Shown: positions 8,298 to 35,645 of the stretch, one piece after another
Numbering within the stretch: position 1 is the stretch's first letter
Layout: every line of letters begins with the position of its first letter
From: a virus
Lineage: Duplodnaviria; Heunggongvirae; Uroviricota; Caudoviricetes
Direction: 5' to 3' (one strand)
Virus record (IMG/VR): IMGVR_UViG_2562617057_000007
DNA length: 60,252 nt
Translations under genes and position numbers: made by a program
Notes under the pieces: generated by a model
The model's input: only the letters and a program-made list of their open reading frames with translations
Database searches by the model: none
What the model was told of the DNA's origin: nothing

Positions 8298-8300
8298 CCC

Positions 8301-14941: not shown

Positions 14942-14971
14942 TAGGTATAGCGCTATATTTGTACAACAAAG

Positions 14972-16511: not shown

Positions 16512-16612
16512 TGTCAGCGCCAGTGATATAAGACGGTAATTCGCCATTTGGATTGTCCGCTCCACCCAACATGTTGTTTCCTTAAGGTTCTCACACCAGA
16601 AAGGACATCAAC

Positions 16613-18582
<1,970 letters not shown>

Positions 18583-18644
18583 CGAAAGTATTTAGCGGGC
18601 ATGAAAATGGCAAATAACGGTCAAACATCGTGGCGTTGACACTG

Positions 18645-18992: not shown

Positions 18993-19011
18993 CCCGTTGT
19001 AAAGTGAGGAT

Positions 19012-20583
19012 ATGGACACCTCACTTGCTCATGAGAATGCCCGCCTGCGGGCACTGTTGCAGACGCAACAGGACACCATCCGCCAGATGGCGAAATACAA
19101 CCGCCTGCTCTCACAGCGGGTGGCGGCTTATGCTTCCGAAATCAACCGGCTGAAGGCGCTGGTTGCGAAACTGCAGCGCATGCAGTTCGGTAAAAGCTCA
19201 GAAAAACTTCGCGCTAAAACCGAACGACAGATACAGGAAGCACAGGAGCGAATCAGCGCACTTCAGGAAGAAATGGCGGAAACGCTGGGTGAGCAATATG
19301 ACCCGGTACTGCCATCCGCCCTGCGCCAGTCTTCAGCCCGTAAACCGTTACCGACCTCACTTCCCCGTGAAACCCGGGTCATCCGGCCGGAAGAGGAATG
19401 CTGTCCGGCCTGTGGTGGTGACCTCAGTCCTCTGGGGTGTGATGTGTCAGAGCAACTGGAGCTTATCAGCAGCGCTTTTAAGGTTATCGAAACACAACGT
19501 CCGAAACTGGCCTGTTGCCGGTGCGACCATATCGTGCAGGCACCAGTACCTTCAAAACCCATTGCACGCAGTTATGCCGGAGCGGGGCTTCTGGCTCATA
19601 TCGTCACCGGGAAGTATGCAGACCATCTGCCGTTATACCGCCAGTCAGAAATATACCGTCGTCAGGGCGTGGAACTGAGCCGCGCCACGCTGGGGCGCTG
19701 GACCGGTGCCGTTGCTGAACTGCTGGAGCCGCTGTATGACGTGCTGCGCCAGTATGTACTGATGCCCGGTAAAGTCCATGCGGATGATATCCCCGTTCCG
19801 GTCCAGGAGCCGGGCAGTGGTAAAACAAGAACTGCCCGGCTGTGGGTCTATGTCCGTGATGACCGTAACGCCGGTTCACAGATGCCCCCGGCGGTCTGGT
19901 TCGCGTACAGCCCGGACCGGAAAGGTATCCATCCACAAAATCACCTGGCCGGTTACAGCGGTGTGCTTCAGGCCGATGCTTACGGTGGTTACCGGGTGTT
20001 ATACGAATCCGGCAGAATAACGGAAGCCGCGTGTATGGCTCATGCCCGGAGAAAAATCCACGATGTGCATGCAAGAGTGCCCACCGACATCACCACGGAA
20101 GCCCTGCAGCGTATCGGTGAACTGTATGCCATCGAGGCAGAGGTCCGGGGCTGTTCAGCAGAACAGCGTCTGGCGGCAAGAAAAGCCAGAGCCGCGCCAC
20201 TGATGCAGTCACTGTATGACTGGATACAGCAACAGATGAAAACACTGTCGCGTCACTCGGATACGGCAAAAGCGTTCGCATACCTGCTGAAACAGTGGGA
20301 TGCACTGAACGTGTACTGCAGTAATGGCTGGGTGGAAATCGACAACAACATTGCAGAGAACGCCTTACGGGGAGTGGCCGTAGGCCGGAAAAACTGGCTC
20401 TTCGCGGGTTCTGACAGCGGTGGTGAACATGCTGCGGTGTTGTACTCGCTGATCGGCACATGCCGTCTGAACAATGTGGAGCCAGAAAAGTGGCTGCGTT
20501 ACGTCATTGAACATATCCAGGACTGGCCGGCAAACCGGGTACGCGATCTGTTGCCCTGGAAAGTTGATCTGAGCTCTCAGTAA
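19012..20583 (+). CDS. IS66-family transposase OrfC (copy 1)
   Basis: 523 aa, N-terminal leucine-zipper-like region, Cys cluster CPACGG...CCRCDH, identical to copy 2. Confidence 0.85.
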
Positions 20584-20727
20584 ATATCAATACGGTTCTG
20601 GCGAGCCGCTTACGAAAAACAGGCGTGTATCAATATTTATACGTAACCGTCTCATTTAAACCGTCTTTCGCCTCCCTTTCCTGTTTCCGATACTAATGTC
20701 CATTTTCGCAGTAAAGGGACATTTAAG

Positions 20728-21369
20728 ATGAATGCACGAAAAGCGGTACTGGCAGACAATCCGGAATTGATCCTGCGTGTGCTACAACTGAGATTTGACG
20801 AGTCACTGTCGTACCCGCGCATTTCTGCGCAGACCGGTATCAGCAAAACCGCCATTTTTTCTCTGGTGAGGCGATTTCACCAGGTATTCACTGACTGGCC
20901 TCTTTCCGGGGAATATTCCTGCGTGCAACTGGCCCGGGCTTTGTTCCCGGGGCGATACCCTTCAGCCCCGACAGTAACTCAGACTGTGAAAACAGAGAAA
21001 AACCGCCGGAACCGATTTTCACCGGAGTTTAAATGGAGACTTGTTCAGCAAACTCTTTTACCCGGTGCCTGTGTCGCACAAATAGCTCGTGAGAACGGAA
21101 TCAACGATAACCTGCTCTTTAACTGGCGGCATCTCTGGCGTAACGGCGGCCTGCAGCCGACCGGCGAACATGAAACATCGCTACTTCCCGTGACGTTAAC
21201 TCCGGAGCCGGATAATAAAATCCCGGCACCAGTGCAGATACCTGAACAGATGCCCGACAGTCTGTGCTGTGAGCTGGTTCTGCCGGCCGGAACTCTCAGG
21301 CTGAAAGGTGAACTGACACCGGCGTTATTACAGACACTTATCCGCGAAATGAAAGGGAGCAGCCACTGA
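20728..21369 (+). CDS. IS66-family accessory protein OrfA (copy 2)
   Basis: 213 aa; stop overlaps orfB start (TGATG). Confidence 0.8.
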   Translation: MNARKAVLADNPELILRVLQLRFDESLSYPRISAQTGISKTAIFSLVRRFHQVFTDWPLSGEYSCVQLARALFPGRYPSAPTVTQTVKTEKNRRNRFSPEFKWRLVQQTLLPGACVAQIARENGINDNLLFNWRHLWRNGGLQPTGEHETSLLPVTLTPEPDNKIPAPVQIPEQMPDSLCCELVLPAGTLRLKGELTPALLQTLIREMKGSSH

Positions 21370-21716
21370 TGATATCTCTCCCTGCCGGTTCGCGTATCTG
21401 GCTGGTTGCCGGTATCACCGACATGCGAAATGGTTTTAACGGCCTGGCATCAAAAGTTCAGAACGTCCTGAAGGATGACCCGTTCTCCGGGCATCTGTTC
21501 ATCTTCCGCGGACGCCGGGGTGACCAGATAAAAGTGTTGTGGGCTGACAGTGACGGACTGTGCCTCTTCACCAAACGCCTGGAGCGGGGCCGCTTCGTCT
21601 GGCCGGTTACCCGTGACGGCAAGGTGCACCTTACTCCGGCTCAGTTATCTATGCTTCTTGAAGGTATCAACTGGAAGCACCCGAAACGAACGGAACGCGC
21701 TGGCATCCGCATATAA
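21369..21716 (+). CDS. IS66-family OrfB (copy 2)
   Basis: 115 aa. Confidence 0.8.
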   Translation: MISLPAGSRIWLVAGITDMRNGFNGLASKVQNVLKDDPFSGHLFIFRGRRGDQIKVLWADSDGLCLFTKRLERGRFVWPVTRDGKVHLTPAQLSMLLEGINWKHPKRTERAGIRI

Positions 21717-21735
21717 CCCGTTGTAAAGTGAGGAT

Positions 21736-23307
21736 ATGGACACCTCACTTGCTCATGAGAATGCCCGCCTGCGGGCACTGTTGCAGACGCAACAGGACAC
21801 CATCCGCCAGATGGCGAAATACAACCGCCTGCTCTCACAGCGGGTGGCGGCTTATGCTTCCGAAATCAACCGGCTGAAGGCGCTGGTTGCGAAACTGCAG
21901 CGCATGCAGTTCGGTAAAAGCTCAGAAAAACTTCGCGCTAAAACCGAACGACAGATACAGGAAGCACAGGAGCGAATCAGCGCACTTCAGGAAGAAATGG
22001 CGGAAACGCTGGGTGAGCAATATGACCCGGTACTGCCATCCGCCCTGCGCCAGTCTTCAGCCCGTAAACCGTTACCGACCTCACTTCCCCGTGAAACCCG
22101 GGTCATCCGGCCGGAAGAGGAATGCTGTCCGGCCTGTGGTGGTGACCTCAGTCCTCTGGGGTGTGATGTGTCAGAGCAACTGGAGCTTATCAGCAGCGCT
22201 TTTAAGGTTATCGAAACACAACGTCCGAAACTGGCCTGTTGCCGGTGCGACCATATCGTGCAGGCACCAGTACCTTCAAAACCCATTGCACGCAGTTATG
22301 CCGGAGCGGGGCTTCTGGCTCATATCGTCACCGGGAAGTATGCAGACCATCTGCCGTTATACCGCCAGTCAGAAATATACCGTCGTCAGGGCGTGGAACT
22401 GAGCCGCGCCACGCTGGGGCGCTGGACCGGTGCCGTTGCTGAACTGCTGGAGCCGCTGTATGACGTGCTGCGCCAGTATGTACTGATGCCCGGTAAAGTC
22501 CATGCGGATGATATCCCCGTTCCGGTCCAGGAGCCGGGCAGTGGTAAAACAAGAACTGCCCGGCTGTGGGTCTATGTCCGTGATGACCGTAACGCCGGTT
22601 CACAGATGCCCCCGGCGGTCTGGTTCGCGTACAGCCCGGACCGGAAAGGTATCCATCCACAAAATCACCTGGCCGGTTACAGCGGTGTGCTTCAGGCCGA
22701 TGCTTACGGTGGTTACCGGGTGTTATACGAATCCGGCAGAATAACGGAAGCCGCGTGTATGGCTCATGCCCGGAGAAAAATCCACGATGTGCATGCAAGA
22801 GTGCCCACCGACATCACCACGGAAGCCCTGCAGCGTATCGGTGAACTGTATGCCATCGAGGCAGAGGTCCGGGGCTGTTCAGCAGAACAGCGTCTGGCGG
22901 CAAGAAAAGCCAGAGCCGCGCCACTGATGCAGTCACTGTATGACTGGATACAGCAACAGATGAAAACACTGTCGCGTCACTCGGATACGGCAAAAGCGTT
23001 CGCATACCTGCTGAAACAGTGGGATGCACTGAACGTGTACTGCAGTAATGGCTGGGTGGAAATCGACAACAACATTGCAGAGAACGCCTTACGGGGAGTG
23101 GCCGTAGGCCGGAAAAACTGGCTCTTCGCGGGTTCTGACAGCGGTGGTGAACATGCTGCGGTGTTGTACTCGCTGATCGGCACATGCCGTCTGAACAATG
23201 TGGAGCCAGAAAAGTGGCTGCGTTACGTCATTGAACATATCCAGGACTGGCCGGCAAACCGGGTACGCGATCTGTTGCCCTGGAAAGTTGATCTGAGCTC
23301 TCAGTAA
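21736..23307 (+). CDS. IS66-family transposase OrfC (copy 2)
   Basis: 523 aa. Confidence 0.85.
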
Positions 23308-23713
23308 ATATCAATACGGTTCTGGCGAGCCGCTTACATTTATACTCAGTCACATCAGAATTTAATATCGCAACAGAATGCGTGGAATTAATTGAGGCAA
23401 CCCCAAAGTCTTCCTGTCAACTTGTTTCAAGTGCTACCAACCATGAACACAGAAATGTAAATATCCAAATAAAGTCTCTTATTGAAAAATACAGCAGTGA
23501 GTTGGCGAAAGTATCAGGAGCAAAGGAGATTTATGAAGAATTGATAGTTGCTGTGCCGAGCAGGGAAAATGAATTCAGGAAGCTTTCTCTTGAACAAGAG
23601 AAAAAACACATCAAGATAAATGAAAAAATAAATACATTAATTGGAATTATTAATCAATCTCTTGCAGTAACGCAATGAATTTTAACAAGTATTTGAAGAT
23701 AAATGGAGTCATG

Positions 23714-23986: not shown

Positions 23987-24742
23987 CTACATATCAGCCA
24001 ACAGCATCCCGGCTATCCCGTCCAGGCGTTTTTTTACCTTTTCCCAACCCGGCATAACCTGCCCCATCAGCCGGTAAAATTTCTCGCTGTGATTGTGCTC
24101 AGCGACATGGCATAACTCATGGAGCAATACATAGTCGATGCATTCCGAGGAAGCCTTTACCAGCCACGGGTTAAGTGTCAGGCAGCCTTTTGCAGAACAG
24201 TTTCCCCATTGCGTCTGCATGGCTCGTAAACGTATCGGAGGACGCTCACTTACCCATAAGGTTTGCGGTATCAGTAAATCCAGTCTGCGTTGAAACACAT
24301 CTCTGGCGCGTTCCCGATACCACTCAACCAGCACCGCCTTAACGCGTTCAGCGGATTTGTGTCTGACGGTGACTTCCAGACGGCCCCGCAACATTTTCAC
24401 TTTTTGCGTAACAGCAGCATCTTCTGTTACTTTCAACTGGTATTGTTTGCCAAGATAGTAATGGCTTTCGCCACTCACATACTGACGCGGAACGATATGC
24501 GTTTGTTGCTCCCTGAAGTCGCGTAGTTGCTGGTATATCCAGCGCCCTCGCTTTTTCAGCGCAGATATCACATCCAGCTCCGGCGTTCCGGGTGGTACAG
24601 ATGCGACTACCCGGCAGTCCGGATGAACCTTGATAAGTATCCTGCCTTTAACAACCTGCCGTGGTACACACTGAACCACGATGGTTTCATCACCATAAAC
24701 AAAACGTACAGCATTCATAGATAGTGACTTTTTCTCACTCAT
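23987..24742 (-). CDS. M48/DUF45-type zinc metallopeptidase (YgjP-like)
   Basis: 251 aa with HELCH zinc-binding motif; start overlaps hsdR stop by 4 nt. Confidence 0.75.
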   Translation of the reverse strand: MSEKKSLSMNAVRFVYGDETIVVQCVPRQVVKGRILIKVHPDCRVVASVPPGTPELDVISALKKRGRWIYQQLRDFREQQTHIVPRQYVSGESHYYLGKQYQLKVTEDAAVTQKVKMLRGRLEVTVRHKSAERVKAVLVEWYRERARDVFQRRLDLLIPQTLWVSERPPIRLRAMQTQWGNCSAKGCLTLNPWLVKASSECIDYVLLHELCHVAEHNHSEKFYRLMGQVMPGWEKVKKRLDGIAGMLLADM

Positions 24743-27700
24743 GATTTCATCAAACCAACGCGCAGGATCTGTATGATGGTTTCAACGATACGGTTTACCT
24801 GGTTCATTCCAGCACCGATCTCTCGACAGGCAGTAAACAGTCGCGGCAACAGGCTTGTCTTAACGGCTTTCTCGATATCCTGAGGATTGAGGGAATTTTC
24901 CGCAACCGCTTTGACAATAATAGTGTCCACTTCGAAAGCCAGCTTCGTCCATTTATGCTGAACCTGATCATCGTTTACCGCGAAAACCTCAGGTAGCTCT
25001 TTTTTAAATACTCCGTAGTATGCCTGCGCATGTTTGTTTACGGCCAGCGCATCCGGGATGTCGCTGAGTTTGCGGGCTTCCACCTGCGCCTCAAACTCGC
25101 GGAAAAGGAGATATTGCTTCAGCGGATGGTCGAACAGTTTTTCAGTCTCTTCAATAACCATACGCAGGAGTTTTGAGAATGCCTCCTGAGCATAGGGATC
25201 GTCGCACAGTTCATGTTCAATCATCTTCGTGACGCGGGTTTTAATGATGTCGGTCTCATTGCGGGTTTTGTTGTTATCCCACTCTTCCGGCTTTTCAGTT
25301 TTACCCATCTTGCCCACTTCATATACGCCATCCGGTTCACGAACCGCGACACCAGTAACATGCTTATTCAGCAGTTTTTTCACCTGTTCAGCGTAGTCGT
25401 CATAATTGACCTGCTCACCACTGACCTGCATCGCCCACTGGCGCAGGCTGGACATCTGTTTTACGGTTTCTTTATAGATATTTCGGTCTTGTTCCGTAAA
25501 GCTCTTGTCGGTGAAGAAGGTGGCGGACTGCAGCGCTACTTTCAGGCATCCGGCAAAGGCCGTTAACACCTCGAAGAAATCATCACGGGTTTTCTGATGG
25601 ATATCGACCATCTCTCCGTCACGTTCTTCCATTTTAGGCACCAGAACTGCACGTAACTGCTCAGTATCATTCTTGTTTTTAACACCGGCAAATATGGCCC
25701 ACAACTGGTTATACAGATGCGGCAGACGCTTGTATTCAGAGCTCATGGCGCTGTACAGCCCATCAATATCCTTGATGTCATATCCTCCCTGAGTTCGGGA
25801 GGCAAGATCCTGATATTTACCGATAGTCGTGTCCAGTTCAGCCAAAATGCCGCGATAATCAATCAGCAGACCAAACTTTTTCAGTGGATGCAGTCGGTTC
25901 ACCCGGGCAATCGCCTGGATAAGATTATGGGACTTAAGAGGTTTGTCGATATACAGCACGGTATTCTTCGGTTCATCAAACCCGGTGAGCAATTTATCAA
26001 CGACGATCAACAATTTAAGCTTATCATCGGTATCGAAGCGGCTAATGATATTACGGGTATACACAGACTCATCCTGCGTGCCGACATTATCCTTCCACCA
26101 TTTCGTCACTTCCGGCAGTTTGCTTTCATCCACCTCGGTGTTCCCTTCCCGGGTATCCGGCGGGCTGATAACGACAGCTGACTCAAACAACCCGGCTTCA
26201 TCAAGATACTTTTTATATTTGATGGCGGAAATCTTGCTGTCGCAGGCAAGTTGGCCTTTCAGCCCCTCATCAATATTCTTCGAGAAGTGCATGGCGATAT
26301 CTAATGCAATCAGCCGGATGCGGTCATCTGCACTATAAACCTCACCCTTACGGGCATATTTACGCTTAAGGTCGGCTTTTTGCGCTTCGCTTAACCCATC
26401 GGTAATACGATCAAACCATGCATCTATTGCCCGGTCGTTTACCTCAAGATCAGGAATACGTTCCTCGTAAAGCAGAGGCGTCACCGCCTGATCTTCTACC
26501 GCTCGCTGCATGGTATAAGCGTGGACAATCGGCCCGAATTTATTGGTGGTCTTATCTTCTTTCAGCAAAGGTGTACCGGTAAATGCCACAAAAGCAGCAT
26601 TCGGCAGGGCCAGTTTCATACGCACATGGTTTTCGCCACCCTGGCTGCGGTGTCCTTCATCAATCAGTACGATGATGTCGGGGCTGGTATTGACGCATTC
26701 AGGAAGTTTTGTCGCTGAATTAAATTTCTGGATCAGGGTGAAGATAATACGTTCTTTACCGGAGCCAATCTGTTCCGCCAACATCTGCCCGGATGTCGCC
26801 ATTGCATTGGCTTTGTCTTTTTTCCCGACCAACTCGCCGCCGGAAGCAAAGGTACCGCTGAGCTGTTCTTCAAGATCGATACGGTCCGTCACCACCACAA
26901 TACGACACTGCTTCAGGCTGTCATGAAGAATCAGCGCCTTACTGAGGAACACCATGGTATAAGATTTACCGGAACCCGTGGTATGCCAGATGACACCACC
27001 TTCCCTGCCGCCGTCTGATCTACGGGTACTGATGCGTTCCAGTAGTCTTTTAATGCCGAACACCTGCTGATAGCGGGCGACAATCTTCCCGGTCTTTTTA
27101 TCAAACAGGGTGAAAAAGCGCGTCATCTCCAGCAGACGTTCCGGCGAAAGCAGACTGATGAGCAGTTTGTCCTGTCCACTAACGGCCAGTTCACCCCCGG
27201 CGATTAACTGCTGATACCAGTTGAGATCGGCTGACGGACGATGATCAAATAACGCATGAATCTGTTCAGTCGATAACGGATGGTTGCGCAGAGCATACAT
27301 CTGCGCATCCGTAATATCTTCTTCCCGCCATGCCGCCCAGAATTTCATTGGCGTATGGCAGGTACCGTAGCGACCGTCATGCCCGTTAATCGAAAGCAAT
27401 AGCTGGCTATAGGCAAACAGCTGCGGGATTTCATCGTTGAACTGGTTGCGGATACTCTGAGATATCCCTTCGTCAATGGTTGGCCCTTTCTTACCGTGAC
27501 CTGCCGGGCTTTTCGCTTCAATGACTGCCAGCGGGATACCATTCACAAAGCAGACAATATCCGGTCTGCGGGTTTCGACACCGCCTGACCGCAATACCGT
27601 AAATTCTTCGGTAAAGTGAAACTGGTTATTTTCCGGATGTTCCCAGTCAATCAGCGCAATGGTGGGGTTCACCTTCTTGCCATCGACAAACTCCGTGACG

Positions 27701-28026
27701 GCGATACCGTAGAGCAGATGGTTATACATCCGCTCATTGGCTTTCAGCAGTCCTTCATTCAGCGCCGGAGAACAGACCTGCGATATCAGGTTATCCAGCG
27801 CCTTTTCCGATAACTGGCAGATTTTGCCACCCGCCATAAAGGAACGCTTCGAAAGCTCTTCACGCAGAACCGGACGCAGCACCACCTCATCCTGTTTATA
27901 GCCCCGGTAATCCATAATCTGTTTCGGGGATAAAAACGTCCAGCCGAGGCTGGTCAGTAACGTCAGTGCCGGAATTTTGGCGCTGTATTCTTCCTGGAAT
28001 TTTGGCGTGTACGTCTGGTTCATCAT
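24739..28026 (-). CDS. hsdR: Type I restriction enzyme R subunit
   Basis: 1095 aa; Walker A TGSGKS, DEGHR (DEAH-box) motif, size typical of HsdR. Confidence 0.9.
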   Translation of the reverse strand: MMNQTYTPKFQEEYSAKIPALTLLTSLGWTFLSPKQIMDYRGYKQDEVVLRPVLREELSKRSFMAGGKICQLSEKALDNLISQVCSPALNEGLLKANERMYNHLLYGIAVTEFVDGKKVNPTIALIDWEHPENNQFHFTEEFTVLRSGGVETRRPDIVCFVNGIPLAVIEAKSPAGHGKKGPTIDEGISQSIRNQFNDEIPQLFAYSQLLLSINGHDGRYGTCHTPMKFWAAWREEDITDAQMYALRNHPLSTEQIHALFDHRPSADLNWYQQLIAGGELAVSGQDKLLISLLSPERLLEMTRFFTLFDKKTGKIVARYQQVFGIKRLLERISTRRSDGGREGGVIWHTTGSGKSYTMVFLSKALILHDSLKQCRIVVVTDRIDLEEQLSGTFASGGELVGKKDKANAMATSGQMLAEQIGSGKERIIFTLIQKFNSATKLPECVNTSPDIIVLIDEGHRSQGGENHVRMKLALPNAAFVAFTGTPLLKEDKTTNKFGPIVHAYTMQRAVEDQAVTPLLYEERIPDLEVNDRAIDAWFDRITDGLSEAQKADLKRKYARKGEVYSADDRIRLIALDIAMHFSKNIDEGLKGQLACDSKISAIKYKKYLDEAGLFESAVVISPPDTREGNTEVDESKLPEVTKWWKDNVGTQDESVYTRNIISRFDTDDKLKLLIVVDKLLTGFDEPKNTVLYIDKPLKSHNLIQAIARVNRLHPLKKFGLLIDYRGILAELDTTIGKYQDLASRTQGGYDIKDIDGLYSAMSSEYKRLPHLYNQLWAIFAGVKNKNDTEQLRAVLVPKMEERDGEMVDIHQKTRDDFFEVLTAFAGCLKVALQSATFFTDKSFTEQDRNIYKETVKQMSSLRQWAMQVSGEQVNYDDYAEQVKKLLNKHVTGVAVREPDGVYEVGKMGKTEKPEEWDNNKTRNETDIIKTRVTKMIEHELCDDPYAQEAFSKLLRMVIEETEKLFDHPLKQYLLFREFEAQVEARKLSDIPDALAVNKHAQAYYGVFKKELPEVFAVNDDQVQHKWTKLAFEVDTIIVKAVAENSLNPQDIEKAVKTSLLPRLFTACREIGAGMNQVNRIVETIIQILRVGLMKS

Positions 28027-28075
28027 TAATCCTTTTCTTTCTGGCGCTACTCGCTACTGGTCACATGAAGATTCA

Positions 28076-28759
28076 TCAATGCAGACAGCACTTCTTAAAT
28101 TTTTTACCGCTGCCACACGGACACGGGTCATTTCGCCCGGGCATGTTTTCTGCCCTCTTCACTGGAACAGGCCGGGATGATGCCTCTGACATTCTCACTG
28201 ACAACCAGTACTGATAAAGTGCCAGTGCAGCAGGCTGAATAAGGGAAATACTTTTCTCAAACTGCTCTCCGGTCATTTTCTCAAGTACAGGAAAATTCTT
28301 CTCCACGCCATGAAGAGCGATCACTTCCAGAGAAGGCCGTAACTCACCGGGAAGACCAGACCAGTCATCCAGTGACTTTCCTTTCATATAACCAAAACAC
28401 CACTCTTCCACAATGGTATATTTTTCCCCCTTTACCTCACGCTCATTGAAAATCGGCTCAAACAGTTCAGGGGCGTCATAAAGGCAACCAGCGATATCGT
28501 TCATATGCTGAAAACACAGACTGACAAAACGCTCCATCTCTCTCTCAGATGACCATTTCGGATGATAATCGCCTCTTCCCCAAATAGCACTCAGCCAGAT
28601 ATTGGGTGAAACCATATTTGGACCTGATAAAATCGCCGTCAGCAATCCATCCAGCTCAGAGAAACAGAGTACAGAATCATCCATTCCATACTTCATTAAT
28701 ATTTCTTCCAGCCAGTCGATTTCCCGGTCAGTCAGTGGACCGCTTTTCGTCAGTTTCAT
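28076..28759 (-). CDS. YecA-like (UPF0149) protein with C-terminal SEC-C zinc motif
   Basis: 227 aa; collinear similarity to E. coli YecA as recalled; terminal [24 protein letters not shown] motif; start overlaps hsdS stop (ATGA). Confidence 0.8.
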
Positions 28760-29940
28760 ACGGCAACCGCCTCATCCACTTTCACCCGACGTTTCCCGGT
28801 CAGCAGTTGCTGCATCAAGGCTTTCTTCTCGTTTTTCAGGCAGGCGAGTTTTTTCTCAAGTGTGGAGATTTCGGTGTCGGCAGCGGACAGAACGGCGGCA
28901 ATTTTTTGTTGTTCTTCAAAATTGGGCACTGATAATTTTAATGTCTTTATATCATCACTATTAATTGATTCAAATGTGCTACCTTGTGATAGGTAACACC
29001 ATTTTGGTTCAAACCAAAGAAACCATTGATAAAGAAATGATTGACTCATTTTTCTCTTGGATTTTATAGCCGATATACCACGCCCTATACATGCTTTATG
29101 TTGAGAAAGTGCAACAGTACCTACAGGTGCCCTGACACTTAGAAGAATATCTCCAGGAGTACATTCTTTCGTAATGTCAGACGTATAAACTCTGGGACAT
29201 GAAACTCGGCACTTTATATCGGCATTACCCTGTATTAATGGCAAACCTAAGCCATTATCGTTGTAGGCTTCGGATTTAGGTGATGATCCCATAATAATAT
29301 GTGCTACTTCAGACAAAGTGCACGTACACCACTCCCCACTAAACCTCACCCCATTCTCATCCAGCAACCGTTTCTTCCCGGTAAGCAATTGCTGAATCAG
29401 GGCTTTTTTCTGCTGCTGGCTGTTGGCGAGAAGCTTTTCCGTCACCGAAATCGCCTTATTCCAGGTTGACAGGATTTGGGATATTTTCTTTTGTTCAGCA
29501 ACAGGCGGGGTAAGCACAAATTGATTATCAATGTCTTTTTTTTGAACATGTAATAATGTTGATTTGAAACCATGAGCCTGCGCTTCAATTTTTTGAGTTA
29601 TATGCAATAAAGCTAAATACAGCCAGTGTTCATGAACATTTTCATTTGCAAATACCTTGTAGATATGCTGATTCAAAACACCTTTTGGCCCATTCCAAAT
29701 GAAAGGACCGAAGGATACACCTTTTGTACCTGCCCAAGAAAATAGTAACTGCCCTGGTTCAACTAACCATTTATCCTGAGGAACACCTGAAAAATAGTTA
29801 TAATTACCGCTTCCATTTAGATTTTGAATTCGAATGATAGGAAGACCTTTTGTATCCCACTCATGTGGCTTAAAACTATTACCATTTTGTAACTTACAGA
29901 TATCTGACACTTGGAGAAGCATCCACCCCTTAGGCACCAT
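28756..29940 (-). CDS. hsdS: Type I restriction-modification specificity subunit
   Basis: 394 aa with two variable halves separated by repeated conserved segment [14 protein letters not shown] / [14 protein letters not shown]. Confidence 0.85.
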
Positions 29941-31453
29941 AACCCAACTCCTTCAGATAACCCGCCATCTCCGTTTCCAGTTTCGCCAGTTCCACCTTCA
30001 ATTGCTCACGCTCAGAACGCACGGCCAGCAAATCAATCTCGTCTTCTTCTTCAAAAGTATCGACATAGCGCGGAATATTGAGGTTGTAATCGTTATCCTG
30101 AATCTCCTTCAGGCTGGCGAGATAGGCATATTTCTCGACGTTATCGCCTTCACGATAGGTGTTAACGATCTTCTGGATATTTTCTGCGCTGAGCTGGTTC
30201 TGGTTTTTGCCCGCCTTATATTCACGGCTGGCATCGATAAACAGCACCTTGTCATCCACTTTCTGCTTCTTAAAAATCAGAATCGCGGCCGGAATCCCCG
30301 TACCGTAGAACAGTTTTTCAGGCAAACCAATCACCGCATCCAGCAGATTTTCATCAATCAGTTTCTGGCGAATCTTACCTTCGCTGGAGCCACGGAACAG
30401 CACACCGTGTGGCACGACCACCCCCATACGACCCGTTCCCGGTTTCAGGGTTTCTATCATATGTGAGATAAAGGCGTAATCGCCTTTGGTCTTCGGCGGT
30501 ACACCACGACGGAAGCGACCAAACTTATCGTTCTCGGCCTCATCATGGCCCCACTTATCCAGACTAAACGGCGGGTTAGCGGTCACGATATCAAACAGCA
30601 TCAGATCGCCATTTTTATCGAGCAGCTTCGGGTTACGAATGGTATCGCCCCACTCGATTTTATGGTTGTCCTCGCCATGCAGGAACATGTTCATTTTCGC
30701 CAGCGACCACGTGGAGCCAATCGCTTCCTGACCGAACAAAGCATAGTTACGGCTGTCATGCCCGGATACAATCTTACGCCCGCACTTCATTAACAACGAA
30801 CCAGAACCACAGGCCGGATCGCAGATGGTATCACCCGGTTGTGGATCAAGTAGTTCAGCAATCAGGTCCGAGACTTCCGGCGGGGTATAAAATTCCCCGG
30901 CTTTCTGCCCACCGCTGGCGGCAAAGTTTTTAATCAGATATTCGTAGGCATTACCGATAACGTCCAGCGTACCTACACGGCTTGGCTTCAGGTTAAGATC
31001 TTCACCGGCAAAGTCTTCCAGCAGCTGACGCAGGATGGTGTTCTTCTGTTTTTCTTCACCCAAGCGGTCAGTGTTAAACGAAATATCCTGAAAGACGCTT
31101 TTCCCGGCATCTTTCAGTTTGGTGCCGTTGGCTTCTTCAATAGCGTGTAGTGCCTGATCAATACGCTCGCCGTTTCCCGGCTCATAGCGACGCTCGTAAA
31201 GAGTATAAAAGCTGGCACTTTTCGGCAGCACAAAACGCTCGTTAGCCATCATCGCTTCAATCAGCTCCGGCGCATCGCCATACTGTTCTTTGTATTCGTC
31301 ATAGTGATCCTGCCAGACATCCGAAATGTACTTGAGGAACAGCATGGTAAGGATAAAGTCTTTGTAAGTATCAGCACTGATGGTACCACGGAACGTATCG
31401 CACGCGGCCCACAGGGCTTTGTTGATCGTGTCCTGACTGATTTTGTCGTTCAT
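29930..31453 (-). CDS. hsdM: Type I restriction-modification N6-adenine methyltransferase subunit
   Basis: 507 aa; motif I DPACGSGSLL and motif IV NPPF (VTANPPFSLDKW). Confidence 0.9.
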   Translation of the reverse strand: MNDKISQDTINKALWAACDTFRGTISADTYKDFILTMLFLKYISDVWQDHYDEYKEQYGDAPELIEAMMANERFVLPKSASFYTLYERRYEPGNGERIDQALHAIEEANGTKLKDAGKSVFQDISFNTDRLGEEKQKNTILRQLLEDFAGEDLNLKPSRVGTLDVIGNAYEYLIKNFAASGGQKAGEFYTPPEVSDLIAELLDPQPGDTICDPACGSGSLLMKCGRKIVSGHDSRNYALFGQEAIGSTWSLAKMNMFLHGEDNHKIEWGDTIRNPKLLDKNGDLMLFDIVTANPPFSLDKWGHDEAENDKFGRFRRGVPPKTKGDYAFISHMIETLKPGTGRMGVVVPHGVLFRGSSEGKIRQKLIDENLLDAVIGLPEKLFYGTGIPAAILIFKKQKVDDKVLFIDASREYKAGKNQNQLSAENIQKIVNTYREGDNVEKYAYLASLKEIQDNDYNLNIPRYVDTFEEEDEIDLLAVRSEREQLKVELAKLETEMAGYLKELGYGA

Positions 31454-31936
31454 GAATCATCCTGGTATGAAGAAAACCATACGATGTGTTGTATTCATCG
31501 TAGAAAATTTGGTGCAGATAATACCTTAAGGTGCGTCTTCAGGCACGTCAAAGCCGCATCGTTCGAAGTGGATTTTTCCTGAGGGGAATAGGACTCTTTT
31601 TTCCCGTAATGTGGTGGACTGGTTGATGAAACAAACACTAACGCGCGGCTTGGTACTGGATTGACCTGCTCCCCGTGATATCAATACACCCTACCCCAGT
31701 GACGCTAAAACGCATTTTACAACCTTTTATTACATTGGGAATGGTCCAAGATTAAGCTGTCAGGAAATACTCATAAGAGGTGCATTTCCTGTTAGTTCAT
31801 GAAGTACTCTTGAAGTGATTTCATCTTTCTATTAAAAATATCTTTCAAAGCAATGAAATATGTACCATATGGTTTATGAACTGAACTCTTACACAACATA
31901 AGTTAAATAACCTTCTTTTTTAACAAATTTAACAAG

Positions 31937-31958
31937 GTTCGCTATGGCGAACTTTTTT
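31937..31958 (+). terminator. rho-independent terminator upstream of lysis genes (tR'-like position)
   Basis: GTTCGC-TATG-GCGAAC hairpin (extendable to 9 bp) followed by TTTTTT, about 100 bp before the holin gene. Confidence 0.55.
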
Positions 31959-32059
31959 GTATTCAGGGCCCACCGAAGGACGGCTCATAACCCAATCCTA
32001 CGGGCGTATACGCAGGGCCCGCCTTTCAACAACACCCCGTAATGGCGGAGGTGGGAAGT

Positions 32060-32401
32060 ATGAAAATGCACAATACTCCTCATTCCTGGCCTGACTTACT
32101 GGAACTCTTACAAAGTTGGTGGCGTGGAGATACGCCGTTGGGCGCAGTGGTTATGTCAATTGTTATGGCTGGTTTGCGCATCGCCTATTTTGGCGGTGGC
32201 GGCGGCTGGAAACGAAAAACGCTCGAGATTTTGCTCTGTGGCGCTCTGACGCTGACTTTTGCATCCGCTCTTGAGTATGTCGGATGGCCTAAATCACTTT
32301 CTGTTGCCCTTGGTGGTGGTGTTGGGCTGATCGGTGTCGATGCTATTCGTGGGGCTGCAATGCGAGTAATCGGTAACAAGTTTGGTGGCTCTAAGGAGTA
32401 A
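32060..32401 (+). CDS. class I holin with dual-start motif
   Basis: starts MKM (lambda S-like dual start); GGAGGTG RBS; hydrophobic segments; lies directly upstream of a lambda R-like endolysin. Confidence 0.8.
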   Translation: MKMHNTPHSWPDLLELLQSWWRGDTPLGAVVMSIVMAGLRIAYFGGGGGWKRKTLEILLCGALTLTFASALEYVGWPKSLSVALGGGVGLIGVDAIRGAAMRVIGNKFGGSKE

Positions 32402-32404
32402 TTC

Positions 32405-32881
32405 ATGCAGACACTAAATTCCCAACGTAAAGCTTTCCTGGATATGGTGGCATGGTCAGAAGGAACGGATAACGGGCGACAACCGACACGTAATCACGGT
32501 TATGACGTTATCGTCGGAGGTGAGTTGTTCACTGATTACTCCGATCACCCTCGCAAACTTGTCACGCTAAACCCGAAGCTTAAATCAACAGCCGCAGGCC
32601 GGTATCAGCTTCTTTCACGCTGGTGGGATGCCTACCGCAAGCAGCTTGGCCTGAAAGATTTTTCGCCAGAAAGTCAGGACGCTGTGGCGCTGCAGCAGAT
32701 TAAAGAGCGTGGCGCTTTACCGATGATTGACCGTGGCGATATTCGTCAGGCAATCGACCGTTGCAGCAATATCTGGGCGTCGTTACCTGGTGCAGGTTAC
32801 GGTCAGTATGAACATAAAATCGGTGACCTGATTTCCAGGTTTAAAGATGCTGGTGGGGTGGTAAATGAAGCTGACTTATAA
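32405..32881 (+). CDS. endolysin, lambda R-like lytic transglycosylase
   Basis: 158 aa, near-collinear match to remembered lambda R (NSQRKAFLDMVAWSEGTDNGRQPTRNHGYDVIVGGELFTDYSDHPRK...). Confidence 0.9.
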   Translation: MQTLNSQRKAFLDMVAWSEGTDNGRQPTRNHGYDVIVGGELFTDYSDHPRKLVTLNPKLKSTAAGRYQLLSRWWDAYRKQLGLKDFSPESQDAVALQQIKERGALPMIDRGDIRQAIDRCSNIWASLPGAGYGQYEHKIGDLISRFKDAGGVVNEADL

Positions 32882-33389
32882 GATTGTCATCGCGGCATTT
32901 TTCTTCTCTGTCTTTGGGGCGCTCGTCTGGTCTGCAAACCATTACCACAGCAAGTATCAGGCAGAAAAGTTGCGGGCTGATAAAGCGGAAGGTGAAGCTG
33001 AATATCAAGGGAAAGTGATAGCTAATCAGGCATTAAACTTCAATCGTTTTAACCAGATAGCAGAAAACGCAAGCCGATTAAATTCTCTGGTCGACATCGG
33101 TCACGAGAAGACAGTCATCAAATACCGTGAGGTTTTGCTCCGTGAAAAGAACTGTGATTTCCCTGTTCCTGTTGATATTGCTGTCGGGTTGCTCAACTAC
33201 GCGAACCGTTTACGCGCCAGCGCATTGCACTCCGATTCCGGGGACATTGACTCAGCCGGTGATCGTGCCACTACCACCAGAACGTTGACATATTGCCAGG
33301 CTGTTCTGTGGATTAACCCACTGTTGGCAGCCATCGAGAAGGCGAATAACCAGTTGGCTGGTGTCCGACAAATAGAACAGTCCCGGTAA
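32865..33389 (+). CDS. i-spanin (Rz-like)
   Basis: 174 aa with N-terminal transmembrane segment and coiled-coil region, positioned after endolysin. Confidence 0.7.
   Translation: MKLTYKIVIAAFFFSVFGALVWSANHYHSKYQAEKLRADKAEGEAEYQGKVIANQALNFNRFNQIAENASRLNSLVDIGHEKTVIKYREVLLREKNCDFPVPVDIAVGLLNYANRLRASALHSDSGDIDSAGDRATTTRTLTYCQAVLWINPLLAAIEKANNQLAGVRQIEQSR
33127..33288 (+). CDS. o-spanin (Rz1-like lipoprotein) embedded in +1 frame of Rz
   Basis: frame encodes ...ISLFLLILLSGCSTTRTVYAPAHCTPIPGTLTQPVIVPLPPER with lipobox LSGC and Pro-rich tail; start GTG 33127 or 33142 uncertain. Confidence 0.55.
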   Translation: MRFCSVKRTVISLFLLILLSGCSTTRTVYAPAHCTPIPGTLTQPVIVPLPPER

Positions 33390-33450
33390 TAGCATTACAG
33401 AAGCTCTTCCTGGAGGGGCTTCGATAATGACCTGATAACTGGAAAATAAA

Positions 33451-34023
33451 ATGACTAAGAAGCTGAAAGCAAAACACGAGGTGTTTTGTCGCGAGTTTCT
33501 TGTCGATCTGAATGCTACACAAGCAGCTATTCGCGCAGGCTACGCCTCCAGGCGAGCACATGTTACGGGGGCTGAACTATACGGTAAACCTGAGATACGC
33601 GCCCGTATTAACGAGCTAAAGCAGGAGCGTATTGATCAACTGGGCATTGATGCGAATTATGTGCTGATGCGACTGGTTGAGATCGACAGGCTCGATGTGG
33701 CTGACATCCTGGAGGACGATTTAAGTATTAAGCCTCTGTCTGCGTGGCCGGAATCGTGGCGTCGGTACCTGAGTGGATTTAACCTCGCTGAAATGTTTGA
33801 GGGGCGAGGAGATGACAGAGAAATGGTCGGGATCCTTAAAAAGATTAAGTGGCCTGATAAGGTTAAAAACCTTGAGTTGCTTGGGCGCCATGTTTCTGTT
33901 CAGGCGTTTAAAGACAACGTCAAAAATGAAGTGACTGGCGCTGACGGAGGACCAGTCAGAACAGAAATTACCAAATTAACGCCTGAGCAGGCCGCAGAGG
34001 TGTATAGAAAAATGATGGGCTAA
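33451..34023 (+). CDS. terminase small subunit
   Basis: 190 aa; N-terminal HTH-like region ([23 protein letters not shown]), immediately upstream of large terminase. Confidence 0.8.
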
Positions 34024-34025
34024 GT

Positions 34026-35645
34026 ATGCCGTTACCATTCCCCTTCGATTTTAAACATCCTGATTACCAGATGGTTTTTGAATGGCGGATGGAACGCCTA
34101 CAGCGCATTCGCCAGAATCCTGAAATATTGCCTGCACTAAAACAGTTTTACCGTACCAATCCGGCTCAGTTCATCATCGACTGGGGCATGACAACGGACC
34201 CGCGTAATATTGATTATGGCCTGCCGGTGACCATTCCGTTTTTACTCTTCCCTAAGCAGGAGGAGTGGATCCACTGGATTATGGAACGCTGGAGCAATCG
34301 GGAGAATGGTATTACCGATAAATCCCGTGAAATGGGGCTCAGTTGGACCGCGATCGGACTGGCCTGCTCGCTTTGTCTCTTCAACAAAGAAATGGTTATC
34401 GGTTTCGGCTCCCGTAAAGAGGAATACGTCGACAGCACCGGTGACCCGAAAGCATTGTTCTGGAAGGCGCGCAAGTTCGTGGAAACACTACCTGTAGAGT
34501 TTCGCGGTTCGTGGAGCGAGAAGAAGCACGCGCCATATATGCGTGTTGAGTTTCCTGAAACTGGCGCGGTTATCAAAGGTGAGGCTGGCGATAATATCGG
34601 TCGTGGTGACCGTACGACCCTTTATCTTGTGGATGAGGCTGCTTTTCTCCAGCGACCATTACTTATTGATGCCGCGCTTTCCCAGACAACCCGATGTCGT
34701 ATCGATCTCTCATCGGTTAACGGCATGAACAACCCCTTCGCACAGAAGCGGCACAGTGGAAAAATCCCGGTGTTTACGTTTCACTGGCGTAGCGATCCGC
34801 GTAAAGACGATGAGTGGTATCACAAGGAGTGCGAGAAAATTGATAACCCAGTCATCGTTGCCCAGGAACTGGATCTTAATTACCAGGCATCAGCAGAAGG
34901 CATCCTGATCCCCTCAGAATGGGTACAGGCTGCGGTTGATGCACATATCAGACTGGGCATTCAGCCCGGCGGCCAACGGCTTGGTGCAATGGATGTCGCC
35001 GACGAAGGGCGGGATAAAAACGCCTGTTCGCTCCGTTATGGCATCCTGCTGAATGACGTACAGGAGTGGTCAGGTAAGGGGAGTGACATCTATGACTCTG
35101 TGGTTAAGGTTTTTGGTCTGTGCGATGACTTTGGTGCCGATGAGTTTCGCTTTGATGAGGACGGATTGGGTGCTGGCGTTCGTGGTGATGCGCGCGCTAT
35201 CAACGAACTGCGTGAAGCGGAGGGCATCTGTCAAATCACCGCCACTCCATTCCGGGGCAGCGGGAGCGTGTTTCATCCTGAAAATGAAGCTGTTCCCGGT
35301 GATAATGGTAAACCGGCTCGTCTGAATAAGGACTTTTTTGTCAATGCCAAAGCCCAGGGGTGGTGGCATCTTCGCAAATTATTCCGCAATACATTTCGTG
35401 CACTACAGGGTATGGAGTATGACCCGGATGAGATTATTTCCATCAGCAGCACAATGGAAAATAAAGACCGGTTGTTGATGGAGCTGTCACAACCTACCTG
35501 GTCAAAAAATGCCACCGGAAAAATTCTTGTGGATAAGCAACCTGACGGAACGAAATCTCCAAACCTGGCTGATTCTGTGATGATTGCTTATGCCCCGATG
35601 GAAATGCCCATCGTAATTTCTGATGACTTTATGGAGTGGATCTGA
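34026..35645 (+). CDS. terminase large subunit
   Basis: 539 aa; ATPase N-terminal domain and nuclease C-terminal domain layout, followed by portal. Confidence 0.85.

Follow-up and report, generated by a model that had tools for sequence, protein, structure and literature searches.

A holin-proximal leader terminator probably orphaned by deletion of Q and insertion of an island in a decayed prophage

Why does an intrinsic terminator stand in front of the lysis genes of a prophage that has no antiterminator gene beside it? The question is raised by a window of 60,252 nucleotides, the whole stretch of IMG/VR virus record IMGVR_UViG_2562617057_000007, in which, according to the original prediction, a hairpin GTTCGC-TATG-GCGAAC followed by T6 lies about 100 bp before the holin gene, as tR' does in lambdoid phages. 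The hairpin is present at 31937-31958 and its T-run ends 101 nt upstream of the holin start at 32060. We privilege, with a probability of about 0.8, the explanation that this hairpin, called T2, is the holin-proximal second terminator of a late leader that was orphaned in a decayed prophage by deletion of the activator gene Q and by insertion of a mobile island. The features around T2 and the first late genes are:

31909-31936, + strand: phage leader just 5' of T2, conserved in 7/7 aligned relatives
31934-31958, + strand: T2, distal leader terminator (GTTCGC-TATG-GCGAAC then T6; from fold and conservation)
31966-32020, + strand: predicted structured RNA element with a GGGCCC/GGGCCC closing stem, 3' of T2 and 5' of the holin ribosome-binding site
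32060-32401, + strand: lambda-family holin, first gene of the late operon (PF05106, E = 1.8e-27; TIGR01594)
32405-32881, + strand: endolysin (as annotated in 611R5 and H10407, whose region is 92% identical)
32865-33389, + strand: Rz-like spanin (annotation of the same 92%-identical region in 611R5 and H10407)
33451-34023, + strand: terminase gene (Terminase_2 match)

The core of T2 is composed of GTTCGC (31937-31942), the loop TATG (31943-31946), GCGAAC (31947-31952) and T6 (31953-31958), and its stem reaches 9 pairs once flanking A-U and G-U pairs are counted. As RNA it has a predicted folding energy of -10.9 kcal/mol, compared to -3.6 +/- 1.95 in shuffled sequences (n=200; z = -3.7; 0/200 as good), and it is the top-ranked + strand terminator-like site within 29500-34000. 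A tandem TTTAACAA repeat precedes it, with copies at 31919-31926 and 31928-31935. T2 is invariant across 7 aligned leaders drawn from 138 E. coli genomes with an uninterrupted leader (95-98.5% identity), and covariation support is therefore impossible. Judging from position, structure and the behaviour of its family, T2 would terminate transcription in vivo and would be read through under the action of Q.

Downstream, the + strand carries from 32060 the holin, endolysin and Rz-like genes, the small and large terminase genes, the portal gene and structural genes, all intact ORFs from holin to baseplate. The holin scores 135.6 bits against NCBIfam TIGR01594 holin_lambda (cut-off 55) and begins with ATG-AAA-ATG (MKM), a lambda-S-like dual start that is also the annotated start in relatives; translation probably does not begin at the ATG at 32042 that the ORF finder lists. 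The virion module is of the contractile-tail type, with E217- and Pam3-like parts, and the prophage associates lambdoid-type regulation with this structural module. Its tail-fibre gene is interrupted by an IS3-family element, so that particles would be defective in any case. The prophage is integrated beside yfhL and has an IpaH virulence cargo at its end, a gene that points to Shigella or EIEC as source strain.

Upstream of T2, the original prediction had placed roughly 480 bp of AT-rich non-coding DNA, preceded by a restriction-modification island on the opposite strand. The island genes are confirmed (hsdM, hsdS, YecA-like, hsdR and M48/YgjP-like), and the 480 bp that separate T2 from the hsdM start (31453, minus strand) are AT-rich and hold no convincing ORF, but 448 of these 480 bases are the right end of the island rather than phage leader. 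GC content is 0.40 in 31454-31903 and 0.32 in 31700-31903, against 0.50 in the whole window; a candidate hsdM promoter lies here on the minus strand (31741->31714). The island comprises:

9080-9086: left copy of GTTAAAT (alignment with the intact phage and with two E. coli island copies)
9087-31901: GInt-type mobile island of 22.8 kb (junction alignments, inverted-repeat ends)
9222-14941, + strand: left end with three integrase-like genes plus a gene for a 147-aa coiled-coil protein
15785-23337: IS66/IS21/IS66 composite insertion in the island
23987-31453, - strand: restriction-modification block M48-hsdR-YecA-like-hsdS-hsdM (type I)
23987-24742, - strand: M48/YgjP-like gene
24739-28026, - strand: hsdR
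28076-28759, - strand: YecA-like gene
28756-29940, - strand: hsdS
29930-31453, - strand: hsdM
31454-31901: non-coding right end of the island, upstream region of hsdM, containing the right terminal inverted repeat at ~31855-31901
31902-31908: right copy of GTTAAAT, where phage DNA resumes

Both junctions are directly visible in alignments. Positions 31454-31903 match island copies only and positions 31899 onward match phages and prophages, while no genome in the collection spans both the island right end and the adjoining phage DNA. On the phage side, window 8737-9086 corresponds to 7661-8010 and window 31899-35600 to 8001-11706 of the relative L001. On the island side, the segment 31454-31901 is found in 203/5426 E. 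coli genomes with 95-100% identity, always with the island and never with this phage. The island terminates in imperfect inverted repeats of ~45 bp and is flanked by GTTAAAT on either side, in E. coli G3/10 as in the window. In E. coli chromosomes the island stands beside hipA, and the empty chromosomal site with ATAATGTATATTATGTTAAAT is contiguous in 86 genomes. The phage target shares 19/21 positions with this chromosomal target, and the sequence at the left junction of the window (9066-9086, the att-like ATAATGTATATTATGTTAAAT at the end of the left leader half) shares 21/21; the target in the leader is a 21-bp mimic of the usual hipA-side target. The possibility that 31899-31908 is a prophage end (attL/attR) was rejected, phage sequence being continuous there in 138 genomes and 4 phage records. 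A tRNA scan of the window found none, hence no tRNA-linked attachment site.

Among the four genes at the left end of the island, the ORFs of 456 and 516 aa match Phage_integrase (E = 3.5e-9 and 4e-7), Pfam and NCBIfam give no match for the 800-aa ORF, and the 147-aa ORF gives a weak coiled-coil-type match only. Their order and sizes fit GInts, whose module encodes the tyrosine recombinases GinA and GinB, the recombinase-fold protein GinC and the small coiled-coil protein GinD (2017, PMC5385486; Hochhauser et al. 2023, PMC10121019). The likeness to GInts covers the three consecutive integrase-like genes followed by a small coiled-coil gene at the left end, site-specific insertion, flanking imperfect direct repeats, restriction-modification cargo and a chromosomal hotspot that is occupied in several percent of E. 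coli genomes. The difference is the location, a look-alike site in a prophage late leader instead of the hipA-side chromosomal site. SEs have the order intA-tfp-intB-srap (Idola et al. 2023, PMC10214605) in place of A-B-C-D, and sequence does not separate the two types here because the 800-aa protein has no Pfam/NCBIfam match. Gene order, the integrase annotation of the second protein and the reported prevalence in Escherichia nevertheless favour a GInt; the repeat is of 7 bp here, against the 6-bp spacer reported for SEs (PMC10214605). The same three features speak for a GInt over a recombinase-in-trio (RIT) element.

Intact relatives reveal what stood upstream of T2. The prophage of ETEC H10407 has the order cro - VapE - Q - ORF113 - T1 - ~250 bp - T2 - holin and phage vB_EcoM-611R5 the order Q - T1 - T2 - holin, the Q stop codon being 692 nt upstream of the T2 hairpin in the former and ~400 nt in the latter. 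The tR'-like character given to the hairpin is thus borne out by relatives that have Q upstream of the same hairpin, with the correction that it is the distal of two leader terminators. Q of these relatives belongs to Pfam PF06530 (Q21/Q933W family, E = 8e-41); its best solved-structure match, to Q21, is weak (E = 0.04), and the family assignment consequently rests on Pfam. A preprint (Yin, Kaelber and Ebright, bioRxiv 10.1101/651190) assigns PF06530 to the Q21 and Q82 families alike, which looks like a typo, and the weak PDB match supports a putative placement on the Q21 rather than the Q82 side.

The window was predicted to have no antiterminator gene adjacent to the terminator, and none is detected anywhere along it. 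Searches with both Q alleles by tblastn (best E = 0.5) and with a profile built from 64 family members against the six-frame translation (best E = 2.6) yield nothing, and Pfam scans of ~50 selected ORFs, the means by which the Q-lambda (PF03589) and Q82 families were checked, give no PF06530, PF03589 or PF06323. A Q-like activator elsewhere in the prophage, the finding that had been named as counting against uncoupling, was therefore searched for with a negative outcome. What remains of the early-right region lies on the far side of the island:

8136-8297, + strand: cro-like HTH gene, 5'-truncated (HTH_3 match, profile positions 11-55 of 55)
8301-8498, + strand: first 65 codons of a VapE primase/helicase-like gene (tblastn, VapE residues 1-65)
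8503-8793, + strand: 3' fragment of ORF113, codons 18-113 (phiTE_015 family; tblastn 99% identity, residues 18-114)
8856-8890, + strand: T1, proximal leader terminator (12-bp stem, GCAA loop, T-run)
8891-9086, + strand: upstream half of the T1-T2 leader interval, left of the island

Two deletions are read directly from this remnant. One of ~2.8 kb joins VapE codon 65 to ORF113 codon 18 (junction ~8492-8506) and took the remainder of VapE together with Q and with the candidate pR' lying across the Q stop codon. The ORF113 fragment has 99.5% nucleotide identity to H10407, where ORF113 sits between Q and T1, and to many E. coli prophages. The other, larger deletion took the repressor, the cro 5' end and part of the replication module: the cro-like gene is the left breakpoint of the surviving fragment, homology to 611R5 starts at 8286, the repressor and divergent promoter region of relatives are missing, and the H10407 repressor is not found in the window by tblastn. 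The deletion and the island are present together in two other assemblies as well and are an inherited state. T1 folds with -17.1 kcal/mol (z = -2.55) and is identical in H10407 and 611R5; strain MINF_1D has another hairpin at its position, with pairing and T-run preserved. Compared with L001 (7661-8010) and with the leader of H10407, the leader part left of the island is 97-99.5% identical.

These data suggest the following scheme. In the intact phage, Q of the Q21/Q933W family would be produced from the early-right operon and would load on RNA polymerase at a late promoter most probably abutting the 3' end of Q. The Q-loaded polymerase would then pass T1 and T2 into the holin, endolysin, Rz, terminase and structural genes, while transcripts made without Q would end at one or the other terminator. 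In the window this circuit is broken three times, the ~2.8-kb and the larger deletions being among the breaks. The former removed Q and the probable Q-proximal promoter region, and site-specific insertion of the island split the late leader, leaving T1 and the upstream leader 22.8 kb from T2. T2 and the lysis and morphogenesis genes would thus be orphaned, with neither activator nor cognate promoter and with an intact terminator in front. That late genes are cut off from their activator in a defective prophage, as originally proposed, is supported by the comparison with intact relatives, which gives the uncoupling two identifiable causes, internal deletion of Q and site-specific insertion of the island.

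Neither a prediction tool nor a position-weight scan gives a candidate clearly above background, so that the position of pR' is not fixed; in particular, the promoter prediction that had been suggested for 31454-32059 yields no + strand site exceeding background. A candidate in relatives, TTTGCG-17-CATAAT, spans the Q stop codon and is deleted in the window; its score of 7-8 is not above the background median for 600-bp windows. No sigma-dependent pause or Q-binding element is recognised in H10407-type sequence. The argument comes instead from mosaic modules. MINF_1D combines a Q allele of just 44% identity, whose HTH-like segment has diverged, with a T1 hairpin of its own located 25 nt past the Q stop; beyond T1, across T2 and up to the holin, its DNA is that of H10407. 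This exchange favours a pR' located beside Q. A pR' at the Q stop would put ORF113 of H10407 inside a terminated leader, an arrangement unusual for lambdoid phages.

A promoter placed between T1 and T2 (TTGCGA-19-TATAAC) is the alternative that survives best, although it appears unlikely. T1 would then only close the early-right operon (Q-ORF113), and T2, ~55-60 nt into the transcript, would be the sole tR'. The window reads TTGCGA-19-TATAAT at 9040-9070, and the island would separate this -10 element from the terminator, falling exactly where one would look for a sigma-dependent pause or a site of Q loading. TTGCGA with TATAAC/TATAAT is the top + strand promoter-like site in 8794-9221 (score 10.2 in the window, 6.1 in intact H10407), the -10-like hexamers TATTAT and TTAAAT follow downstream, the T1-T2 interval is nearly invariant among relatives, and T1 is found directly after ORF113, the expected place of an operon terminator. 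However, the spacer, at 19 bp, departs from the canonical length, and in the intact phage the score of this site is below background. Since the T1-T2 interval is common to both Q alleles (44% identical, with diverged DNA-binding segments), these would also have to share one Q-binding site. The first terminator is ≤130 nt from the Q stop in 29/61 relatives of other genera and conserved motifs are found at the stop, which argues for a pR' beside Q. With this promoter too, Q is absent and the late genes would be uncoupled.

Loci of the Q21 family in other genera bear equally on the reality of T2 as a terminator. Across 61 such loci, + strand terminators occur at 0.97/kb in the 1.5 kb after Q and at 0.07/kb in the 2.5 kb before it, a 14-fold enrichment downstream of Q, and 27/61 have two or more; two-terminator leaders are therefore documented as common in this Q family. 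The H10407 leader has no nucleotide similarity to 62 loci of other genera, which makes cross-genus covariation of T2 impossible and leaves architecture alone to be compared. It is highly improbable that T2 is a chance or structural hairpin, such as a 5' stabiliser of mRNA or a processing site of the lysis transcript, and not a regulatory terminator. Its stem is short (6 core pairs, 4 of them G-C), lacks covariation, and a loose terminator consensus scan of the region shows no overall enrichment (7 found, 4.7 expected). Against this stand a fold far above that of shuffled sequences with T6 or T7 directly 3', invariance in the 7 leaders although the neighbouring att-like site varies, recurrence, in leaders of unrelated sequence with the same Q family from other genera, of a terminator that precedes the first late ORF by 50-130 nt, and the enrichment downstream of Q, which counts against chance.

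That the late genes are still expressed, by read-out from the island right end or by a same-specificity Q of another prophage acting in trans, is the least credible alternative: GInts are reported with outward-facing promoters at their gin end (PMC5385486), several lambdoid prophages are usual in a Shigella or E. coli genome and the late genes are intact ORFs from holin to baseplate, but 31454-31936 has no + strand promoter above background, the adjacent island genes point away from the junction, Q acts only in cis on polymerase from its cognate promoter/binding site, whose Q-proximal region is deleted, the remaining leader is 22.8 kb upstream, T2 is intact before the holin, and the split tail-fibre gene would leave particles defective anyway.

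With T2 taken as an orphaned leader terminator, the locus is the remnant of a known arrangement. In the Q21/Q933W cassette the Q gene is followed by pR', which has a Q-binding and a sigma-dependent pause element, then by tR' and the late genes (bioRxiv 10.1101/651190), and the relatives have a PF06530 Q 5' of the terminator leader and late genes. The window keeps the terminator-and-late-genes half only, with intrinsic terminators and same-strand lysis and morphogenesis genes and no detectable Q gene, Q and the Q-proximal region being deleted. This leader type differs from the textbook single tR' by two terminators ~250 bp apart and, in H10407, by a 113-codon gene between Q and the first terminator; its Q is weakly similar to Q21 itself, and the contractile-tail virion module is a difference from lambda.

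The decay pattern is also familiar. In cryptic lambdoid prophages of E. coli K-12 and Shigella, such as DLP12, Rac and Qin, lysis cassettes persist after regulators are lost, and DLP12 retains Q (quuD) beside its lysis cassette. Here, likewise, lysis and structural genes are kept while the repressor, the replication functions and the antiterminator have gone, late genes are disrupted by IS elements and IpaH cargo is found at the prophage end; in contrast to DLP12, Q itself is deleted and a defence island, beyond IS elements, splits the leader. The orphan terminator before lysis genes is thus an ordinary case of decayed prophage, explained through intact relatives, and reveals no new regulatory principle. 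For annotation, the locus defines the precise boundaries, the 7-bp repeat and the terminal inverted repeats of a GInt-type element that is common in E. coli and able to land in a prophage at a pseudo-target.

A more speculative thought, which we regard as a long shot, is that the 21-bp site 28 nt 5' of T2, the ATAAYRTAYATTATGTTAAAT site of the leader, is a recurrent and selectable landing pad and that GInt insertion is a specific route of prophage domestication. The site occurs in variant forms among the uninterrupted leaders of 138 complete E. coli genomes, and is the most variable spot of an otherwise invariant leader; the variability could be footprints of past insertion and excision or selection to escape targeting. 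If true, insertion would cut the lysis and virion genes off from Q, lock the prophage and its IpaH cargo in the chromosome and bring a restriction system, domestication then proceeding by GInt insertion and not by random decay.

The leader downstream of T2 has features of its own. The segment 31920-32065 folds with -49.8 kcal/mol (z = -2.75), and the sole two substitutions among relatives in the structured element 31966-32020 sit in a predicted loop. This element has no Rfam match, and a permissive Rfam search gives nothing in 31400-32100 and sub-threshold terminator-like matches only at T1 of the H10407 leader, so the leader is not a described RNA family. At gathering thresholds, Rfam matches in the whole window are C4, isrK and sRNA-Xcc1 only, at 6776-7092 and unrelated to T2.

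The hairpin T2 stands ahead of the lysis genes as the original prediction had described, with the sequence and the distance of about 100 bp to the holin that it gave. Its core consists of:

31937-31942, + strand, GTTCGC
31943-31946, + strand, loop TATG
31947-31952, + strand, GCGAAC
31953-31958, + strand, six T residues

The stem has 9 pairs when flanking A-U and G-U pairs are counted. T2 is the top + strand terminator-like site of a consensus scan of 29500-34000, a segment with no overall enrichment in such sites (7 versus 4.7 expected). Its predicted RNA fold (41 nt) reaches -10.9 kcal/mol versus -3.6 +/- 1.95 for shuffled sequences (z = -3.7), none of 200 shuffles being equal. The gene 3' of T2 encodes a holin of the lambda family (Pfam PF05106, E = 1.8e-27; NCBIfam TIGR01594, 135.6 bits). 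The holin start, ATG-AAA-ATG according to the annotation of relatives, corresponds to window position 32060, and the T-run of T2 ends 101 nt before it.

Two further elements border T2. A perfect tandem direct repeat, TTTAACAA-A-TTTAACAA (31919-31935, + strand), adjoins the 5' side of the stem and is kept in all relatives; two 8-bp subsites in direct repetition are the reported binding site of the antiterminator Q21, and every plausible promoter lies upstream of the repeat found here. A stable stem-loop with closing stem GGGCCC/GGGCCC is predicted after T2 and ahead of the holin ribosome-binding site (31966-32020, + strand). It is also kept in all relatives, its sole two substitutions sitting in a predicted loop, and gives no match in Rfam. 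This structure may act as a stabiliser or translational control element of the dual-start holin.

The 480 bp from the hsdM start (31453, minus strand) to the hairpin had been described as AT-rich non-coding DNA. Composition (GC 0.40, and 0.32 over the final 200 bp, versus 0.50 for the window) and the lack of a convincing ORF in this interval agree with that description, but what is AT-rich here is the terminal part of a restriction-modification island of GInt type, inserted in the leader, the DNA from the late antiterminator gene Q to the holin, rather than phage leader itself. A search for + strand promoters above background in the region 31454-32059 was negative (best score 8.4 versus a background median of 8.0 in equal-size windows). 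Its top promoter-like site, 31741->31714 on the minus strand, is probably that of hsdM.

Two unrelated DNAs meet in the region. When 31454-32100 was searched against 5426 complete E. coli genomes, none covered 80% of the query; the part from 31454 to ~31903 matches 203 of them with 95-100% identity, and the match in phage records is limited to 31899-32100 (97.5%, four vB_EcoM phages). Every E. coli match to the first part forms the end of an island. This island usually lies beside hipA and carries genes for two annotated site-specific integrases, a ~790-aa ORF, a 147-aa ORF, an M48 peptidase, hsdR, a YecA-family protein, hsdS and hsdM. The island of the window (9087-31901) has GTTAAAT at both ends (9080-9086 and 31902-31908), the same 7 bp that flank the copy of E. 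coli G3/10, and its termini are imperfect inverted repeats of ~45 bp. Its left flank, ATAATGTATATTATGTTAAAT, is identical to that of G3/10, and 86 E. coli genomes have the empty chromosomal site with ATAATGTATATTATGTTAAAT in one contiguous piece, downstream of hipA. Uninterrupted phage leaders have ATAACGTACATTATGTTAAAT at the island target, a 19/21 match to ATAATGTATATTATGTTAAAT. Flank identity, GTTAAAT repeats and target match together show that the island integrated site-specifically into a look-alike of its usual target; the T2 core stem begins 28 nt further downstream. The target stretch is the sole variable spot of an almost invariant leader, with CA for CG or a 4-bp deletion in other strains; the two T residues at the window left flank, C in intact phages, are either a natural polymorphism or island-borne.

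The island has three integrase-like genes, the third of which lacks the Pfam integrase match of the other two; it also has a small coiled-coil protein and restriction-modification cargo. This gene content, on which the class is assigned, fits the GInt mobile elements, the related SE class being the alternative. GInts integrate site-specifically, are flanked by imperfect direct repeats and often have restriction systems aboard; those of E. coli carry defence systems at several hotspots (PMC5385486, PMC10121019, PMC10214605). At the left junction (9040-9070, + strand), the promoter-like TTGCGA-19-TATAAT has a perfect -10 hexamer in place of the TATAAC of intact phages. This promoter-like site faces the island integrase operon, which starts at 9222, and could drive or boost these gin-like genes. 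The cargo is itself interrupted:

15785-23337, IS66/IS21/IS66 composite inside the island cargo

The first of the two IS66-family copies is broken by an IS21-family element (istA/istB, 16613-18582); the same stretch is uninterrupted by the composite in the related assembly L074. Segments 15007-15784 and 23338-23693 are extra cargo without counterpart in the E. coli island copies and include a Xre/MbcA/ParS-type small gene pair. All components, those of the leader as well as those of the island, are of known kinds; the insertion of such an island in a prophage is a new instance.

Intact relatives show what the leader was. Phage vB_EcoM-611R5 has a 530-bp intergenic region before the holin, and its upstream gene is annotated as antitermination protein Q. 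The prophage of ETEC H10407, integrated between yfhH and yfhL, has the order int - SNF2 helicase - ... - DNA polymerase - DUF2815 - DUF2800 - ... - repressor - cro - VapE (primase/helicase-like) - Q (141 aa) - ORF113 (113 codons, phiTE_015 family) - 445 bp - holin - endolysin - Rz - terminase - .... The H10407-type Q covers the whole Pfam model PF06530 (E = 8e-41), and its best match among solved structures is, weakly, phage 21 Q (6jnx/6p18, E = 0.04). PF06530 is the Q21/Q933W family, whose cassette consists of the Q gene, the late promoter pR' carrying Q-binding and sigma-dependent pause elements, a terminator and the late genes (bioRxiv 10.1101/651190). The intact leader has two intrinsic terminators on the + strand, T1 (12-bp stem, GCAA loop, -17.1 kcal/mol) and, ~250 bp later, T2. 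In these relatives T2, with its stable stem and T6 or T7 run, comes after Q and before the holin. It is invariant in all seven aligned leaders, drawn from 138 E. coli genomes with an uninterrupted leader.

The comparison was extended to 61 loci of other genera encoding Q21-family proteins of 37-53% identity. Coding-strand terminator-like hairpins number 0.97 per kb over the 1.5 kb that follow Q in these loci, versus 0.07 per kb over the 2.5 kb ahead of it. A terminator is found at most 130 nt from the Q stop in 29 loci. Since 27 of the 61 have two or more, the last one often 50-130 nt before the first late ORF, two-terminator leaders are normal for the Q21 family. We infer that T2 is a Q-controlled terminator, with termination at T2 and read-through by Q.

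Over window positions 1-3455, which correspond to the yfhL flank, integrase and SNF2 gene, identity to H10407 is 97%, and by this comparison the two prophages are of the same kind and at the same site. Three blocks align to 611R5/H10407 around the leader:

8286-8491, cro end and first VapE codons
8507/8737-9086, ORF113 3' part, T1 and upstream half of the T1-T2 interval
31899-35600, downstream half of the T1-T2 interval, T2, holin onward

The leader halves are thus 22.8 kb apart, with island DNA between them. In tblastn, VapE residues 1-65 map to 8301-8498 and ORF113 residues 18-114 to 8503-8793, and neither Q nor the repressor is found in the window; therefore one deletion took most of VapE, all of Q and the surroundings of its stop codon. 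A second, with its junction near 8130-8136, removed the cro 5' end, repressor, DUF2800, DUF2815 and the polymerase N-terminal part. A fragment like an HNH homing endonuclease C-terminus (7948-8127, minus strand) sits where the polymerase gene is cut off; in L074, DUF2815 and DUF2800 have an HNH_3 gene between them. The evidence supports a defective prophage whose Q21-family late leader has kept its distal terminator, T2.

The proposal that late expression is uncoupled from its activator gains support from the search for a Q-like or alternative late activator elsewhere in the prophage. A profile of 64 Q21-family proteins, run against all six reading frames of the window, found nothing (best E = 2.6), and Pfam scans of ~50 ORFs, from both prophage arms and the small ORFs of the structural module, gave none of the three Q family types. 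With the promoter search also empty, the outcome is negative.

Sequence scoring of promoters singles out no pR' position. The Q allele of E. coli MINF_1D is 44% identical to that of H10407 and has a diverged helix-turn-helix-like segment; at the end of Q, TGCGCTACGC occurs twice, as a 10-bp direct repeat. T1 of MINF_1D is a different hairpin with pairing retained, 25 nt past the Q stop codon, and from directly after T1 as far as the holin, T2 included, MINF_1D and H10407 share the same DNA. What is exchanged is therefore Q with the DNA up to T1, as expected if the Q-binding site and pR' abut Q. Conserved motifs are present right at the Q stop in many loci from other genera. On this pattern pR' probably abuts Q; T1 would then be the promoter-proximal terminator and T2 the distal one, and the window deletion would have taken both Q and pR'. 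The rival placement puts pR' between T1 and T2, at TTGCGA-19-TATAAC, in which case the island sits between the -10 element and T2. Under either placement the late genes are without activator.

Many Q21-family loci of Photorhabdus, Xenorhabdus, Providencia, Pantoea, Erwinia and others have the near-palindromic CTTTTCGTTACGAAWTTT 5-30 nt past the Q stop (L017, L024, L026, L035, L036, L041, L043, L047, L050, L052, L054-L057, L060), with a terminator ~40-50 nt further; it is a candidate Q-binding or promoter element of its sub-family. A second group, which includes MINF_1D, has AGTGCGCTACGCAAAAAC in common. ORF113 (Pfam PF26207) is between Q and T1 in some relatives (8946-9287 in the H10407 locus, L005; remnant at 8503-8793 in the window), internally deleted in 611R5 and absent from MINF_1D. 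If pR' abuts Q, lysogens would express ORF113 constitutively from the terminated leader, much like a moron gene.

The VapE-ORF113 fusion followed by the island is found also in two other public assemblies. The first is identical to window 1-15811; the second, L074, has no IS composite, a smaller left-hand deletion and a loss of 69 bp across the island left junction. This comparison indicates that decay was stepwise in one lineage, island insertion and Q deletion being older than the IS insertions. The 69-bp loss (L074 4707/4708, window 9042-9110) comprises 45 bp of phage leader, GTTAAAT and the first 24 bp of the island, and probably immobilises the island there.

The late ORFs are open from holin to baseplate. 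The tail-fibre gene (phage_tail_N domain, 54120-56742) is cut in two by an IS3-family element (54416-55686, minus strand; HTH_Tnp_1 and rve ORFs), another inactivating event in the late region. At the prophage right end, beside a resolvase/invertase gene (59791 onward), an IpaH-family gene (57496-59322, minus strand) encodes a type III secretion effector E3 ubiquitin ligase (NCBIfam IpaH_Shig, 564 bits versus a cut-off of 550; Pfam NEL and LRR_TTSS). It suggests Shigella or enteroinvasive E. coli as source, and a defective prophage retained as an ipaH island. In the left arm, C4 antisense RNA (70.6 bits), isrK (50.9) and sRNA-Xcc1 (72.8) lie in a row above the Rfam gathering score (6776-7092, minus strand), directly upstream of an AntA/AntB antirepressor gene (5960-6724, minus strand). 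This cluster, absent at the corresponding position of H10407, looks like a P1 immI-like antirepressor module controlled by antisense RNA.
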